A stretch of 64,000 bases of DNA from Candidatus Aenigmatarchaeota archaeon (GTDB taxonomy: Archaea; Aenigmatarchaeota; Aenigmatarchaeia; CG10238-14; SCSR01), in the NCBI GenBank assembly GCA_038998335.1, contig JAVZHQ010000001.1, positions 352,001-416,000 on the forward strand. Reading direction: 5' to 3'. Position numbers and translations under genes: made by a program. The notes below the pieces were generated by a model. That model ran no database searches. It saw only the letters and a program-made list of their open reading frames with translations, and was not told the origin of the DNA. This document shows positions 18,930 to 64,000 of this stretch, in pieces. Every line of letters starts with the position of its first letter. The first letter of the stretch is position 1.

Positions 18930-19550
18930 ATGAAGACAGAATCTTTAACTGTCGAGAAAGCTGAGCTAATAGGACTACTGTGCGCAGACGGTACACATTA
19001 TCACTATATTTCCATTTACAATCGATTTTATCCGAAACGAGGAAAATACTATACCACAATAAGTCCAAAAGAACAAATAGAATTTGGCAATTTAAACATA
19101 AAACTTTTGAAACATTTCCAAAAATTACTTAAGATTGCGTATAATTATCATCCTAAAATTACTGGTACTCCTAAAAGTTTAAAAATTCATATAAGTAAGA
19201 AAAATATAATTAAAGACCTATTGCAGTATACGGATTTTGGATCCGAAAAATGGAAGGTCCCAAAAGAAATTAAAGAAGGTCCTTTCGACGTTAAGGCGGC
19301 TTTTATTAGAGGAGTTTACGAAGGTGATGGGGTAAAGCTTCAAACATCAAAATATGGCAAACCATATTTATTTTTTGAAATGAAAAATAAACCTTCATTA
19401 GAAGATTTAAAGAAATTACTTCAAGATATTGGAATTAACGCAAGAATAAATAAGAATAGTAATGGGATGACTAGATTAATAGTGTATGGTTTTGAGAACA
19501 TTACGAAATTTAAAAAATTTATAAAACCAAAATATAAAAAGCTCGGGTGA
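18930..19550 (+). CDS. Free-standing two-motif LAGLIDADG homing endonuclease
   Basis: LIGLLCADG and FIRGVYEGDG; no intein splice motifs. Confidence 0.85.
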   Translation: MKTESLTVEKAELIGLLCADGTHYHYISIYNRFYPKRGKYYTTISPKEQIEFGNLNIKLLKHFQKLLKIAYNYHPKITGTPKSLKIHISKKNIIKDLLQYTDFGSEKWKVPKEIKEGPFDVKAAFIRGVYEGDGVKLQTSKYGKPYLFFEMKNKPSLEDLKKLLQDIGINARINKNSNGMTRLIVYGFENITKFKKFIKPKYKKLG

Positions 19551-19645
19551 CCGAACCAGGTCTAGGTAGTCGGCTGCAGTTGGTCTTTTGATAAAAGATG
19601 AAAAGTTGAGACCGACGCATGCGGGTTCAAATCCCGCCCCGAGCT
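19541..19645 (+). tRNA. tRNA-Cys(GCA) with 31-nt intron 19580-19610 (37/38)
   Basis: GCTCGGG/CCCGAGC acceptor, U73, GTCGG-CT-GCA-G|A-CCGAC, GGTTCAAATCC; relaxed splice motif. Confidence 0.92.
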
Positions 19646-39117: not shown

Positions 39118-39214
39118 GCGCCAGTAATCTAACCTGGTAGGATTAACTATACTAATACCAGCTTCCCAAATCTGGAATAAGCTGGGTGTCCGGGTTCAAA
39201 TCCCGGCTGGCGCA
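39118..39214 (+). tRNA. tRNA-Gly(CCC) with two introns (39144-39156 at 25/26; 39169-39179 at 37/38)
   Basis: GCGCCAG/CTGGCGC; cloverleaf restored by removing both inserts; TTCC/GGAA helix at 37/38. Confidence 0.88.
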
Positions 39215-52304: not shown

Positions 52305-52940
52305 CTCTTTCAGTTTCTTTAAAATTCTATCAACAACAACTTCAGGGGGGATATCAACTTTGCTACACCTTACATTTCCAAAAGGTTTTTTCTTTTTATA
52401 ATATTTTATCAAAGGTTTTGACTGTTTTTGATAAACTCTAAACCTTTCTTTAATAACTTCTGGTTTATCGTCTTCTCTTTGAATTAGCTTGCTTCCGCAC
52501 TTATCGCATATTTCATCGTTTTTTGGCTTAAGAAAAATTTTATGGTAAATCGCGTTGCAATTTGGACAGATTAACCTTCCAGAAAGTCTTGCAATTATAA
52601 CACTTTGAGGGACAACCAAATTTATAATTACGTCAGGAGAAGAGATTTTTTCCAAAGCTTCTGCTTGCGGAATTGTTCTCGGATACCCATCTAAGATATA
52701 ACCTTTTGAGCAATCTGGTTTTGAAAGTCTTTCTTTAACTATTTCTATAACAATATCGTCAGGAACTAGCTCGCCTTTACCTTGATATTCAGCTATTTTT
52801 TTAGCTAGTTCGCTTCCTGACTTAGCAATTTCTCTTAGAATATCACCAGTGTTAATTTTTGGTATTCCTAACTTGCTTTCAATAATTGAAGCATAAGTTC
52901 CTTTTCCTGAGCCTGGGGGACCAAAAATTATTAGCTTCAT
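52287..52940 (-). CDS. adk: Adenylate kinase (Zn-lid type)
   Basis: GPPGSGKGT, LDGYPRT, CxxC lid, QREDD. Confidence 0.95.
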   Translation of the reverse strand: MKLIIFGPPGSGKGTYASIIESKLGIPKINTGDILREIAKSGSELAKKIAEYQGKGELVPDDIVIEIVKERLSKPDCSKGYILDGYPRTIPQAEALEKISSPDVIINLVVPQSVIIARLSGRLICPNCNAIYHKIFLKPKNDEICDKCGSKLIQREDDKPEVIKERFRVYQKQSKPLIKYYKKKKPFGNVRCSKVDIPPEVVVDRILKKLKELGFES

Positions 52941-53023
52941 TTTCTTGCCTCAATTTTATTAAATTAGGGAAAACAAAGCTATAAAGTTTATTAAAAAAAT
53001 ATAAGAGAAATAATTAATTAGAA

Positions 53024-53132
53024 GCTGGGATAGTTCAGCGGTTAGAACGCGGCGCTCATAAGCTTTATGAGCTTTGAAAAAATGATGAAAGATGAAACGC
53101 CGAAGTCCCGGGTTCAAATCCCGGTCCCAGCA
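53024..53132 (+). tRNA. Elongator tRNA-Met(CAT) with 36-nt intron 53062-53097 (best BHB at 38/39)
   Basis: GCTGGGA/TCCCAGC, CGGCG-CT-CAT-AA|CGCCG; BHB helix TCAT/ATGA. Confidence 0.9.
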
Positions 53133-53161
53133 TTTTCTTAAAGAATTTATCCTTTCACTTT

Positions 53162-53422
53162 TTGTTTAATATTATGATTGTACCAACAAAAATTTTGAAG
53201 AAAGAAGATGATTATGAAATAGCCTTGATGGTTTTCCCTGTTTTTGAAAAAGAAAAAACTTTCTACGAGTTTCATCTTGTCAAATCATCTAGCTCCAAAA
53301 CGGAAACACTTAAAGTAAATGAATACAAACCACCACTTAAACTAGAAGAAATAGCAAATGATTTTAACGTTAAACCAGAAGACGTAAAAGAACTTTTAGA
53401 AAAGCTGGGTTACAAGGCTTAA
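53162..53422 (+). CDS. Hypothetical protein
   Basis: ORF track. Confidence 0.5.
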   Translation: MFNIMIVPTKILKKEDDYEIALMVFPVFEKEKTFYEFHLVKSSSSKTETLKVNEYKPPLKLEEIANDFNVKPEDVKELLEKLGYKA

Positions 53423-53476
53423 CTTTAGAAAAGTATTAAATTTATTTTTGCTTAAATATTATCAAAAGGTGAAAAA

Positions 53477-53704
53477 ATGGTTGAATTGACAGAAGAGGAA
53501 AAAAAAGTTGTAGAAGCGATGAAAATGCTAAAAGCAACTTCCGAATCTCAGCTTAAAACAGTAGACCATATAGCAAAAGCTGCATCAATGCCAAAAAGTA
53601 AAGTTGCTTCAATAATCCAAATGCTAATGAACAAAAAAGTTGTAAAAAGAATTGCAAGGGAAAAAGCAGCAGGATATTATCTTGATCCTTCAGCCCAAGT
53701 TTGA
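53477..53704 (+). CDS. Small winged-HTH protein
   Basis: SD GGTGA; IAKAA-x-M-x-KSKV...L...VKR wHTH pattern. Confidence 0.65.
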   Translation: MVELTEEEKKVVEAMKMLKATSESQLKTVDHIAKAASMPKSKVASIIQMLMNKKVVKRIAREKAAGYYLDPSAQV

Positions 53705-53779
53705 CATAACCTTACCTTTGAATTAATGGGATAAAAAGAGGATTTATTTATTCCTAATTCTAATTTTTATTTAAACCAT

Positions 53780-53854
53780 GGCCCGATTAGCGTAGCCTGG
53801 TTAGCGCGCAGGCCTGTGGAGCCTGAAGGCCGGGTTCAAATCCCGGGTCGGGCC
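53780..53854 (+). tRNA. tRNA-His(GTG) with encoded G-1
   Basis: G-GCCCGAT/GTCGGGC-C, CAGGC-CT-GTG-GA-GCCTG. Confidence 0.95.
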
Positions 53855-53998
53855 CAAATTTCTCATCCTTCAAACCCACAGAAGAATTTTTGGATATTTT
53901 GGTAAACTTAAGTAGTTTCAGGATTAAACTTCATCTTTCACAAGAAATTTTAAAAATTTAAAAATTTGATTTAAATTAACAGTTAAAAGTGGAAAAAT

Positions 53999-54736
53999 AT
54001 GAATGAAATGGAGATTTTTGTACTTGGTTCTGGTAATGCTTATTCAGAAAAACGTAACCCAACAAGCTTTGTAATTAATTCTTCTGGAAAATATACACTA
54101 GTTGAATGTCCTAGTATGCTGAGAAAAATTTTAAGAGAATTTAGAGAAAGGTCTGGCAAAAAATTAGGAATCGAGGAAATAAACGATGTTATAGTAACCC
54201 ATTTACATGGCGATCATTCTAACGGTTTAGAAGCTTTTGGATTTTGGAAACATTTTGTAGAAAAGAAAAAGCCAAACATTTATTCTATAAAAGAAGTTTT
54301 TGAAGATTTATGGGAGAATAAACTTAAAGCCAGTATGCAAAGAATTTATACAGAAAATTTTTCTTTAGAAAAAGTTTCTTTAGATTTTTACTTCCAAACA
54401 AAAATTTTAGAATTTGGAAAGATAAATGAAGTAAACAATTTAAAAGTGGAGATTAAAAGAACAAAACATGTTGTACCCTGTTTTGCGATTAAAGTTAATG
54501 GTATACTAGGCTACAGCTCAGATACTTCTTTTGACCCTGAATTAATAGAATTTTTGTCGCCATGTAGAATGATTATTCATGAAGTTGGACCTGGAATTCA
54601 TACAGACTATAAAGAACTAATTCGATTGCCAAAGCATATAAAAGAGAAAATTTATCTTGCTCATTTGGACGATGACTTTAATACCATAAGATCTGAGTTA
54701 AAAATTTTGGAAGAAGGCTTGGTTTACAGAGTATAA
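53999..54736 (+). CDS. MBL-fold hydrolase (RNase Z-like)
   Basis: LGSGNA, THLHGDH, YSSDT, IIHE, HT. Confidence 0.85.
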   Translation: MNEMEIFVLGSGNAYSEKRNPTSFVINSSGKYTLVECPSMLRKILREFRERSGKKLGIEEINDVIVTHLHGDHSNGLEAFGFWKHFVEKKKPNIYSIKEVFEDLWENKLKASMQRIYTENFSLEKVSLDFYFQTKILEFGKINEVNNLKVEIKRTKHVVPCFAIKVNGILGYSSDTSFDPELIEFLSPCRMIIHEVGPGIHTDYKELIRLPKHIKEKIYLAHLDDDFNTIRSELKILEEGLVYRV

Positions 54737-55646: not shown

Positions 55647-57193
<1,547 letters not shown>

Positions 57194-59566: not shown

Positions 59567-59638
59567 GGGCCGGTAGATCAACGGTAGATCGCCTCGCTTG
59601 CAACGAGGAGGTTCGGGGTTCGAATCCCCGCCGGTCCA
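59567..59638 (+). tRNA. tRNA-Ala(TGC)
   Basis: GGGCCGG/CCGGTCC with G3:U70, CCTCG-CT-TGC-AA-CGAGG. Confidence 0.96.
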
Positions 59639-60576: not shown

Positions 60577-62618
60577 AGAAGATGAAACTACCATAGGATA
60601 AGCTGGTCAAGAGGTCCTGGCAACAGTAGCCCACTTGGTGGATGGCTCGGCTTGGTTAGCCGAAGAAGGCCGTGCCAAGCTGCGATAAGCCTGGGTTATC
60701 CGCATGGAGGAGCTGACCCCAGGATTGCCGAATGGGATTCCTAGCCCGTTAAGGGCTATTTCGGAAGAAAAGGGAACGCGCCGAAGTGAAGCATCTTAGT
60801 AGGCGCAGGAAAAGAAATCAAACGAGATTCGGTGAGTAGGGGCGACCGAAAGCCGAACAGGACAAACCGAACTTTCTTTCGAAGAGGAAGAAAGGATGTG
60901 GAGTTACAGGACTTGGGCCTTTCCTAGCTTGCTAACCTGAAGTGAGCTGGAAAGCTCCACCATAGAGGGTGATAGTCCCGTAGGGGAAGGCAAGAAGGAA
61001 AATGCCAAGTCTCCTGAGTACCATTCCTTGGATATGGAGTGGGAATTTGGGTGGCATTAACATCCAATCCTAAATACTAACCAAGTCCGATAGCGGACTA
61101 GTATCGTGAGAGAAAGCTGAAAAGTACCGCGAAAGCGGGGTGAAAAGAGCCTGAAACCAAGTTGGGCATAGTCAGCTAGGGCATGAAAGGTGCTACTCCG
61201 AAGGAAATTCTCGCAAGAGAAGAGTACGAGGAGTAGCTTACAGTGTCCTAGCATCCGTTCTGAAAAACGGGGCAGGGAGTTTGCTCGAGTAGTGAGGTTA
61301 AGGGGTTTAAACCTCGAAGCCAAAGCGAAAGCGACAAGCCCGTAGTCTCGCAAGAGACGTGGGGCGGGGTGTGAAAGCGCCTGAAATTACTCGAGCAAGA
61401 CCCGAAGCCGGTCGATCTAATCCTGGGCAGGATGAAGTTCCTCGAAAGAGGAATGGAGGTCCGAACCGGTGCTGAGACCCAATCGCTCGGTTGACCCAGG
61501 ATTAGGGGTGAAAAGCCAATCGAGACCGGTGATAGCTGGTTCCTCCCGAAATGAGCGTCAGCTCAGCCTGGTTGGAGGTAAGCAGTAGGGTAAAGAGACT
61601 GATTGGACGGTCAAGGTGCGAAAGCATCAGCCGTCCTGTCAAACTCTGAATCTACTGCTGCCTGAGAAGACCGGAGTGAGGGTACTGGGTTAAGCTCGGT
61701 ACCCAAAAGGGGAACAACCCAACCTGGGGTTAAGATCCCTAAATGCCGGCTAAACGAAGAAGGGAGTCCAAATCCTTAGACAGCGGGGCTGTAGGCTTAG
61801 AAGCAGCCATCAGTTAAAAAGTGCGTAACAGCTTACCCGCCGAGGGTTTGGGCCCTGAAAATGGAAGGGACTAAGCCGGCTGTCGATACCCCAGACCTGC
61901 GAAAGCAGGGGGTAGGGAGGCGTTCTGCATGGGTAGAAGCTTGTTCGTGAGAACAAGTGGACCGTGCAGAATTGAAGATCCTGCCATGAGTAGCAGCATA
62001 GCTGGGTGAAAATCCCAGCCGCCTGAACCCTCAGGGTTTGCCAGCAATGTTCGTCAGCTGGCAGTTAGTCGATCCTAAGGGCGCTCTTAACCGAAGCGCT
62101 CAAAAGGGAAATCGGTTAATATTCCGATACCATGGAGGTACGTGCGGCAACGCAAGCTAGCTTTCCGACGTTTCGGGATAGGCCGACGCAAGTTAACTGC
62201 CGAAGCCTGCAGAGTCTCGTAACGAGGAGAAGCAGGTGAAAGCAGGAATAGCTCCGCGTATGCGGAGTTCGGCCGATTCCTGGAACCCGTGAAAAGGGAA
62301 GCTAGAAGGATCCTCCATGATCGTACCAAGAACCGACACAGGTAGGGTCGCTGAGAAGGCGAAGGCGTGTTGGGAGAACCCAATCCAGGGAAATCGGCAA
62401 ATTGGCCCCGTATCTTCGGTAGAAGGGGTGCCTGTTCTCTCGAAAGGGAGAACAGGTCGCAGTGACAAGGGGGAAGCGACTGTTTAACAAAAACACAGGA
62501 GACTGCTAGTCCGAAAGGATTTGTACAGTCTCTGAGGTCTGCCCAGTGCCGGTGTGTGAAACCCGGTTCCAACCGGGAGAAGCCCCGGCAAACGGCGGCG
62601 GTAACTCTGACCGTCGTA

Positions 62619-62664
62619 ACTCAGGGCGGTCATCTGATTTGATGATACGCCGCCTGGGCGACAT
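62619..62664 (+). other. 23S BHB intron (46 nt) at about 1927 with D'/C' K-loop
   Basis: GTCG-TA|A ... CGAC-AT|A. Confidence 0.9.
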
Positions 62665-62792
62665 AAGTAGCGTAATCCCTTGCCGTTTAATTGACGGCCC
62701 GTTCAACGGCTTAACGACTTCCCCACTGTCCTGGGTTGGGACCCAGCGAAAATGCTGTTCTGGTGAATAGGCCAGAGACCTCCGGTGGGAAA

Positions 62793-62823
<31 letters not shown>

Positions 62824-62976
62824 GCGTTGCTGTAAGGTTGAAATTGCATAGAGTAGCTGGGACTCGCTATTAGGCGCAGGCTTCGGCCGAGGCTGAGAGG
62901 AAAGTGTAACACCAGCCCTTTTCAACCTTACGGCTTACCCGTAAGGGGACAGCGTCAGATGGGCAGTTCGGCTGGG

Positions 62977-63060
62977 AGTTTAGGAGCTAGAATGAAGAGT
63001 CCCTTAAGTTATGAAAAAATGATTAAGGGCATACGGTCTGAACAGCTCCTAAACCAGCAA
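62977..63060 (+). other. 23S BHB intron (84 nt) in P-loop (2252/2253) encoding a full box C/D sRNA
   Basis: GCTG-GG|A ... CAGC-AA|G; removal restores GGCTGGGGCGG. Confidence 0.93.
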
Positions 63061-63115
63061 GCGGTACGCCCTTGGTAAGAGATCAAGGGCGCCCAAAGCT
63101 CAGCTCATCCGGGTC

Positions 63116-63212
63116 ATGTCAGAAGTTGAAGCTATGATTACACTGCTCCAGAATGATTTAAAGATGAGTATGGAGGTAGCTTATGAGCTTTCATCAACTT
63201 CTGACACCCGAA
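63116..63212 (+). other. 23S BHB intron (97 nt) at about 2306 encoding a full box C/D sRNA
   Basis: CGGG-TC|A ... CCCG-AA|A; removal restores CCGGGTCAGAAATCCGG. Confidence 0.92.
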
Positions 63213-63384
63213 AGAAATCCGGAGTAGAGTGTAAGCGCAAAAGCTGGGTTGATTGGATCCCGCAAAGCGAGGGATCCAAGGGCGAAAGCCTGGGCTAGCG
63301 ATACATCGGTTCGCCTTAATGGCGGCCGGTGGTATCAGAAAAGCTACCTCGGGGATAATGGGCCCGTGGCCGGTGAAAGCCCAC

Positions 63385-63427
63385 AGCTCAGGGGTTTTCA
63401 TCCCACTCGATAGCGACGAGCGGGTAA
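63385..63427 (+). other. 23S BHB intron (43 nt) at about 2477
   Basis: GCCC-AC|A ... GGGT-AA|A; removal restores AGCCCACATTGAC. Confidence 0.88.
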
Positions 63428-63526
63428 ATTGACCCGGCGCGTTGGTGCGTCGCTGTCGGCTCCCCCCCTCCTGGCCGTGCAGTAGCGGCCAAGGGTACAG
63501 GTGCCCACTGGTTAAAGGGGGACGTT

Positions 63527-63560
<34 letters not shown>

Positions 63561-64000
63561 GCTATCTACCGGAGGTGCTGGCTGTCTGACCGGAAGGATG
63601 GGTGAGTACGAAAGGAACACCCATCCGTGGCCTCTGGTCTACCGGTTGTTCATCGCACAGCCGGGCAGCTAAGCCATAGCGGATAAGTCCTGAAGGCATC
63701 TAAGGACGAAACCGCCCGGGAAAATAGGCAGCCAATTGCTCTGCTATTCCGCAAGGAACGGTAGAGCAACGAGGGCTCTCCTAGACGAGGAGGTTGATAG
63801 GAAGGGGGTGTACGCGCCAAGCTTTCGAGCGAGGCGTTCAGCCCGCCTTTCCTAATCGCCCGAGGTTGCCAGGACTTGATAAGCAGCTTATCCTATGGTA
63901 GTTTCAAAAGTTTTTTTCTAAAATAAAAAAGTTAAACTTTTTTTTCTTAATTTAATTTGTGAAGATTGAAGTGTACATAAGAAATAGAGAAGTTGAAATT

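Follow-up and report, generated by a model that had tools for sequence, protein, structure and literature searches.

The tRNA-Met(CAU) gene and its intron

The window, i.e. the whole 64,000-nt stretch of DNA analysed, belongs to a Candidatus Aenigmatarchaeota genome of 1.0 Mb (9 contigs, 33% G+C, about 90% complete). At positions 53024-53132 (+) it carries an elongator-type tRNA-Met(CAU) gene with an intron, which was identified by a match to the Rfam tRNA model (59.9 bits), by its sequence and by homologues in relatives. Reading by hand gave the acceptor stem GCUGGGA/UCCCAGC with discriminator A, the anticodon stem CGGCG (53050-54) and CGCCG (53098-102), the loop CUCAUA(A) and the anticodon CAU, with C34 at 53057. 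The tRNA is not initiator-like, since it has G1:C72 and its anticodon stem lacks a run of three G-C pairs at the foot; because of this, and because a separate tRNA-Ile(UAU) is encoded in the genome, it was read as elongator tRNA-Met. The tRNA-Ile(UAU) gene, which has an intron, lies outside the window (G000:C2:71223-71316). Neither an Ile2-type CAU tRNA nor an initiator tRNA was recognised among the 45 tRNA matches of this about 90% complete genome. ARAGORN missed the tRNA-Met gene when run without introns, and with introns it recovered the span under a wrong label, Ser(cga).

Between A37 and C39 there are 37 bases, one of which is nt 38, and the intron is therefore 36 nt long; hand parsing of 53024-53132 thus bore out the length given in the initial annotation. 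Sequence, hand parsing and a BHB-like fold evaluated by energy place the intron at 53062-53097 (38/39 border), followed by the 3' exon, which starts at C39 and runs over 53098-53132 (sequence and Rfam match). An alternative intron at 53061-53096 (37/38) would leave an identical mature tRNA, and because of the flanking A's the borders 36/37, 37/38 and 38/39 all yield the same mature sequence.

Elsewhere in the window, the 16S rRNA gene (55647-57193), a tRNA-Ala gene (59567-59638) and the 23S rRNA gene (60614-63875) were located, with three opposite-strand ORFs of 151, 268 and 244 aa between 16S and tRNA-Ala/23S. The 23S match spans 3,262 nt versus a 2,987-position model, which suggests insertions. 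A further tRNA gene of 97 nt (39118-39214; Rfam, 38.7 bits) contains inserted sequence and no K-loop, and its ARAGORN assignment as Ile(aat) is doubtful.

One candidate guide and one predicted K-loop in the tRNA-Met intron

A guide-like module is laid out across the exon-intron junction. Its target strand, nt 31-38 (GCUCAUAA), occupies 53054-53061 and is followed by a 3-nt linker GCU (53062-53064), which would form a hairpin loop if target and guide paired in cis; the target-guide hairpin was present in both the minimum-energy and the centroid fold. The guide UUAUGAGC (53065-53072) is complementary to nt 38-31 at 8/8 positions. It is separated by a spacer U (53073, position 1 upstream of D'), a potential stem II partner of the final A in the C' box, from a D'-type box UUGA (53074-53077). 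The A-rich loop AAAA of the K-loop (53078-53081) and a C'-type box AUGAUGA (53082-53088, core GAUGA 53084-88) follow, giving a D'/C' pair joined by a short loop, UUGA-AAAA-AUGAUGA, at 53074-53088. The antisense element lies directly upstream of D', with N+5 at C34. In an alignment of 33 modules (A1), the UGA of D' was near-invariant, the GAU-A of C' invariant and the second G of C' present in ≥90%.

The initial annotation had given the layout as guide-T-TTGA-AAAA-ATGATGA, and these letters were confirmed at 53065-53088. Its 8/8 match of the guide to the anticodon loop held for the pairing, since TTATGAGC (53065-53072) pairs with GCTCATAA (53054-53061) at all eight positions, but not for the location, since G31 belongs to the anticodon stem and not to the loop. 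The claim that N+5 falls on C34 was reproduced by a script, which independently paired the fifth base upstream of TTGA with tRNA position 34, where a C stands.

No terminal box C/D was found in the intron and adjacent exons, neither as RUGAUGA upstream of the guide nor as CUGA downstream of C'; the second guide and the full box set of the tRNA-Trp type were absent from the intron. Because it has a single K-loop (C'/D') and no terminal C/D pair, we regard the module as a natural "half-mer" and not as a canonical box C/D sRNA. A degenerate second C box, AAGAUGA (53089-95), was considered and rejected, being unconserved (UAAGAAA, GGUGAAC and others in relatives) and serving as splicing helix. Circularisation of the intron, which would give the order C-guide-D, was also rejected: the distance from C' to D' round the circle is 21 nt by hand count, not the about 12 nt that is the norm.

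Conservation and covariation among relatives

A BLAST search with the precursor against 40 relatives yielded tRNA-Met homologues from 24 genomes, and no tRNA-Met locus was returned in the other 16. All 24 homologues have GAGC, 1 nt and NUGA, then a short loop and a GAUGA-like word; one of them (L022) has only 4 guide pairs. Other loci were matched through the K-loop/tail/T-arm part of the query, and 16 of them were fetched from relatives blind to the guide; all proved to be introns of other tRNAs. In-register guides to their own nt 31-37 were present in 16/16 of these introns (Trp 6, Glu(UUC) 5, Lys(UUU) 3, Gln(UUG) 1, Arg(UCU) 1). The distance from guide to NUGA was fixed, with nt 34 at N+5, in 24/24 tRNA-Met homologues and in 16/16 of the other introns.

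Covariation of guide and anticodon loop extends over eight tRNA species, namely Met, Trp, Leu(CAA), Leu(UAA), Gln(UUG), Lys(UUU), Glu(UUC) and Arg(UCU). Within the 33 modules of A1, the 8-bp guide helix was 91.3% paired versus 29-44% with slid partners; the paired percentage is inflated because rows were pre-filtered at ≥6/7 pairs, and the cross-tRNA covariation is not inflated. Changes on both sides were seen in 6/8 pairs of the helix, and the covariation score was 0.63 versus 0.06-0.19, a value reached by 0/500 shuffles.

A loose K-loop regular expression applied to 3-kb flanks gave many false parses, and a model-based alignment (A2) was used instead. In A2, whose 99 modules were fitted to the model structure, include the training rows and comprise kin that are not independent, the nt-34 pair was C-G in 63 modules, U-A in 36 and unpaired in 0. 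The D' box read UUGA in 83, AUGA in 7, UCGA in 4, CUGA in 4 and UAGA in 1, and the C' box GAUGA in 84/99. The spacer was U in 82/99 and formed U-A with C'6 in 78/95 scored modules, and D'1:C'5 was U.G in 81, U-A in 6, C-G in 3, A-U in 1 and other in 4. The loop of the K-loop measured 2-7 nt, mostly 5-6 when the base before GAUGA is counted, and contiguous guide pairs numbered 6-8. When the pairing box bases are assigned after K-turn structures, the result is the pattern that a K-loop whose stem II has two pairs would show. The letters that a K-turn/K-loop requires for its tandem sheared G.A pairs and for the adjoining U.U and Watson-Crick pairs are present, and stem II covaries; the fold itself and binding of L7Ae are predicted from them.

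A covariance model (R1) matched 111/118 genomes of the same order at E≤1e-4, including 34/34 high-quality ones, with 1-9 matches per genome. A class-wide sample gave matches in 81/151 genomes at E≤1e-5, near-universal in the source genome's own order and patchy elsewhere (10/11 in one family, 0/7 in another). The hosts of 60 fetched R1 matches were Met (14), Leu(CAA) (14), Leu(UAA) (10), Trp (7), Glu(UUC) (5), Gln(UUG) (5), Lys(UUU) (3) and Arg(UCU) (2), a tally that leans to Met, Trp, Leu, Lys, Glu and Gln because R1 was trained on them, Arg being outside the training set. All 60/60 are C34 or U34 tRNAs for the purine-ending codons of two-codon boxes, and they include the four tRNAs whose nt 34 is described as a C/D sRNA target in Pyrococcus (PMC7994747).

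A pattern scan over one genome per prokaryote species placed at least 26 of the 80 loci listed in tRNA-Met genes with this intron design. Among the matches listed, these were mostly from Candidatus Aenigmatarchaeota, with a few from Woesearchaeota, Micrarchaeota or other archaea, and the remaining loci listed were mostly chance matches in bacteria. At one locus among the matches listed, L087, the intron is 72 nt long and a full set of boxes is present.

Related modules and C/D core proteins in the source genome

All 45 Rfam tRNA matches of the source genome were inspected for the module. It was found in the introns of tRNA-Trp(CCA) (CUGGAGC-U-AUGA-AAAAA-GAUGA), tRNA-Leu(CAA) (CUUGAGU-U-UUGA-UUCAA-GAUGA) and tRNA-Leu(UAA) (CUUAAGU-U-UAGA-UUUCAA-GAUGA), and a fifth module, in tRNA-Gln(UUG), was found by R1. 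In 5/5 (Met, Trp, Leu(CAA), Leu(UAA), Gln(UUG)) the guide matches its own anticodon loop and N+5 is nt 34; the R1 scores of the five are 62.8, 59.4, 49.0, 43.4 and 35.5 bits. In 2.02 Mb of strand-bases there are 255 copies of the word NUGA-N2-8-GAUGA, and it fell in 5 tRNA genes (3,836 nt) versus about 0.5 expected.

The tRNA-Gln(UUG) gene (G000:C1:556995-557113, minus strand, outside the window) was missed by the Rfam tRNA search and wrongly labelled Leu by ARAGORN. Of its two introns, one is short and interrupts the anticodon stem at about 29/30, and the other carries the K-loop guide.

Genes for the C/D core proteins are present. The gene for Nop5 (230 bits), a 357-aa protein in which the archaeal N-terminal domain is combined with a complete Nop domain, is directly followed by that for fibrillarin (282 bits); the L7Ae gene (109 bits) lies away from this pair. 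One EndA catalytic-domain gene was also detected. A strict four-box scan of the genome for canonical C/D RNAs gave a single match, in the tRNA-Ser(CGA) intron, which suggests, as far as a strict scan can tell, that canonical sRNAs are few. None of the Rfam C/D families matched the mini-modules, even at E≤1.

The tRNA-Ser(CGA) intron (53 nt; match at G000:C1:504746-504792, minus strand, outside the window) looks like a complete C/D RNA, with AUGAGGA, 12 nt, CUGA, AUA, AUGAUGA, 10 nt and CUGA in succession. The Rfam families sR12 and snoPyro_CD matched it at full length, but weakly and below thresholds. Aligned by hand, its D guide places at N+5 either its own C34 (with G.U pairs) or C34 of tRNA-Leu(CAA) (one mismatch).

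Two other K-loop sequences were noted. The tRNA-Cys(GCA) intron (gene at window positions 19541-19645) contains the K-loop UUGA-UAAAA-GAUGA, with UUGA at 19588-19591, GAUGA at 19597-19601 and a guide at about 19579-19586. The bases GUUGGUCU upstream of the K-loop pair with AGACCGAC, which comprises the intron end and nt 39-43. This pairing would put C39 at N+5, like Um39 of tRNA-Trp elsewhere; R1 gave only 17 bits, and the intron may hold a separate 39-directed module. The second sequence is intergenic-looking (G000:C1:705934-705958, plus strand, outside the window), reads ACUGGAGC-G-CUGA-AAA-GAUGA and has C34 of tRNA-Trp at N+5; both a stand-alone half-mer and a match by chance are conceivable.

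Competing folds of the precursor

The intron tail (53088-53097) supplies, by hand parsing and fold energy, the 3' strand of the putative splicing motif, with AAAG (h'), AUGA (H, with U33-U36) and AA (3' bulge). In the 38/39 arrangement, H pairs U33-U36 with AUGA 53092-95, the 5' bulge is A37 A38 G53062 and h' pairs CUUU 53063-66 with AAAG 53088-91. The initial annotation had put the best BHB at 38/39, and this was indeed the only clean bulge-helix arrangement found by hand. Compared with the hBHBh' standard of a 4-bp helix between two 3-nt bulges, its 5' bulge, H and h' are regular and its 3' side is relaxed (AA opposite C32). The tails of relatives (UAAGAAA, AGGAAA, GGUGAAC and others) pair with nt 32-35 at 37/38, with C32:G in 93/99, U33:A/G in 74/86, nt 34 in 40/88 (often C.A) and nt 35 in 48/68.

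The guide duplex, 53065-72 with 53054-61, excludes the splicing motif, which uses the tail 53088-97. Because the intron tail and not the guide makes the splicing helix, the precursor has two alternative, mutually exclusive folds. They are near-isoenergetic, at -35.4 kcal/mol for the guide fold and -33.3 kcal/mol for the splicing fold at 38/39, the tRNA body only giving -30.3 kcal/mol. Pairing in cis is sterically possible in most modules, as the hairpin loop left by full pairing measured ≥3 nt in 93/99 and most often 3-7 nt.

Interpretation of the module

We consider it likely, from the comparative patterns, that the module in the tRNA-Met intron is a minimal C'/D'-type guide for 2'-O-methylation of the tRNA's own C34 before splicing. 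The initial annotation had proposed an intron-borne guide aimed at C34, and its C/D-type character gains support from the covariation of guide and anticodon, the fixed distance to NUGA, the conserved letters of the K-loop and the presence of genes for fibrillarin, Nop5 and L7Ae. The guide reading is preferred because it is the only one that explains the covariation, the invariant register and the conserved K-loop letters together. Several features count against it: terminal C/D boxes, a defining trait of archaeal C/D sRNAs, are missing, the contiguous pairs number only 6-8, D' is mostly UUGA and not CUGA, and L022 has only 4 pairs. Antisense elements of archaeal sRNAs are given as 8-12 nt in PMC2584109, which puts the module at the low end.

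The best-surviving alternative, which we judge unlikely, is an L7Ae-bound structural device that acts without methylation and masks the anticodon loop, stabilises the precursor when hot, or times or gates splicing. The mutually exclusive folds, close in energy, speak for such a device, and in several relatives h' of the splicing fold would, by hand parsing, use C'-box bases. One K-loop also falls short of a complete C/D RNA, and L7Ae is described as binding many K-turns outside C/D RNAs (PMC5539422). A structural device, however, has no need for a pairing whose start lies, in all the tRNA species, precisely two bases upstream of NUGA, nor would it be limited to the C34/U34 tRNAs of two-codon boxes; fibrillarin and Nop5 are, moreover, kept in a 1-Mb genome with one canonical C/D RNA by the strict scan.

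It is far less probable that the intron, once excised, works in linear or circular form as a small RNA in trans with its real targets elsewhere, e.g. in rRNA, and that the match to its own tRNA is secondary. The RNP of the tRNA-Trp intron does work in trans in vitro as described in PMC7994747 and PMC11408192, but here each guide follows its host anticodon and not a common rRNA site. When the genome was searched for stand-alone half-mers through 8-mers complementary to rRNA and tRNA, the result stayed at noise, with 48 matches versus 52 with reversed targets. If an intron acted in trans on further copies of its own pre-tRNA, this would count as a sub-case of the guide explanation.

A chance product, i.e. 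ordinary BHB pairing of anticodon and intron plus accidental box words in an AT-rich, AUGA-rich intron, is scarcely credible, and the comparative data already speak against it: pairing of the anticodon loop with the intron is indeed usual in archaea, AUGA complements UCAU and occurs four times in the tRNA-Met intron, but the splicing helix is formed by the intron tail and not by the guide, the boxes are conserved where the anticodon has no AUGA complement (Lys, Glu, Trp), and a K-loop word with an in-register guide of ≥6/7 pairs arose in only 17/300,000 intron shuffles and 4/300,000 random genomic 37-mers.

Under the guide reading, we infer the following course of events. L7Ae would bind the K-loop, and Nop5-fibrillarin would dock on the L7Ae-bound K-loop. 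The antisense element would pair with nt 31-38 either of the same precursor, in a hairpin of 7-8 bp capped by a 3-nt loop, or of a second precursor, and fibrillarin would 2'-O-methylate C34, the partner of the fifth guide position. The precursor would then switch fold, with the intron tail and nt 33-36 forming the bulge-helix motif, and the splicing endonuclease would remove the intron, which would place methylation before splicing. Action in cis and action in trans appear about equally probable, because the Trp system acts in trans in vitro though cis pairing is sterically possible. Site specificity might be obtained if two modules shared a Nop5 dimer, or if the tethered tRNA body served as the second anchor.

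A wider proposal, which we hold tentatively and with somewhat less confidence than even odds would carry, is that of a natural, tethered and cis-acting half-mer of ~25 nt with a single K-loop, present in up to nine introns per genome and only in C34/U34 tRNAs of two-codon boxes. Competition between the folds would act as a methylate-first checkpoint, and in these archaea, with their reduced genomes, the C/D machinery may serve mainly to methylate tRNA wobble bases and less so rRNA.

Relation to known guide systems

The introns with this module are about 30-60 nt long and occur in up to eight tRNA species, unlike the tRNA-Trp guide, whose known introns are about 60-105 nt long. The tRNA-Trp intron guides of Pyrococcus (sR50) and Haloferax volcanii are similar in lying in a 37/38 intron of their own target and in being aimed at C34, as described in PMC7994747, PMC4033218 and PMC11408192. 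According to the same accounts they also pair across the exon-intron junction in competition with the splicing fold and employ fibrillarin, Nop5 and L7Ae, but each is described as a complete C/D RNA whose two guides address C34 and U39, whereas the module described here lacks a terminal C/D and combines a single guide with a single K-loop. A 2024 review of intron-dependent modification cites Trp as the sole archaeal intron-guide case (PMC11408192).

The same host tRNA in another small-genome archaeon carries a second precedent, the 66-nt intron of the Nanoarchaeum equitans elongator tRNA-Met (Randau 2012, PMC3491384), described there as a stable RNA with box C/D elements. By that description its box C carries one mutation, its box D fits the consensus and a GC hairpin is present, while the target is left open in the text available; the intron described here is 36 nt long, has a D'/C' K-loop only, and its target is indicated by register and covariation.

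Stand-alone Cm34 sRNAs, sR-tMet of Haloferax and sR49 of Pyrococcus, share the target nucleotide and the N+5 logic (PMC2584109, PMC4033218), and the statement in the initial annotation that Cm34 of Haloferax tRNA-Met is guided by a separate sRNA agrees with both descriptions. These sRNAs are separate genes with a full box set, whereas the guide here lies within its target's own intron. As reported in PMC7994747, PMC4033218 and PMC2584109, nt 34 of tRNA-Met and of both tRNA-Leu is served by separate sRNAs in Pyrococcus and Haloferax.

Engineered half-mer or single-site RNPs are alike in having one K-turn and one guide, and they assemble with the core proteins in crystals (PMC6239191). The engineered constructs use a terminal C/D K-turn, and by the account in PMC1635284 the fully single-site RNP was active in vitro but lost site specificity; the module here has a natural, conserved K-loop and is attached to its substrate.

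A literature search over abstracts and main texts returned no account of guide introns with a single K-loop, whether in Aenigmatarchaeota or spread over many tRNAs. Compared with the precedents, what appears new is the spread of putative single-K-loop guide introns over many tRNAs, which is well supported by comparative sequence evidence. If the guide reading holds, the module would be the smallest natural RNA guide for fibrillarin, and one K-loop with 7-8 guide bases would suffice in vivo, a point of interest for the long-debated question of why archaeal C/D RNPs have a bipartite build. The tRNA introns across an archaeal order would have a definite function as carriers of wobble methylation guides, and the guided tRNAs would be those that distinguish purine- from pyrimidine-ending codons. 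The module also offers a compact, testable system for cis versus trans guidance, for the coupling of modification and splicing and for guide shrinkage in reduced genomes. Annotation pipelines for tRNAs and sRNAs overlook such genes and guides, as illustrated by ARAGORN, which missed or mislabelled the gene, and by Rfam, which has no matching family.

Ribose-methylated C34 and U34 are documented in tRNAs of thermophilic archaea (PMC7668247). The DNA runs that held at least half of the sampled words of window positions 52400-54000 were labelled hot springs metagenome and came from 2 studies beyond the possible source. These labels are consistent with a thermophilic habitat, where Nm34 is common.
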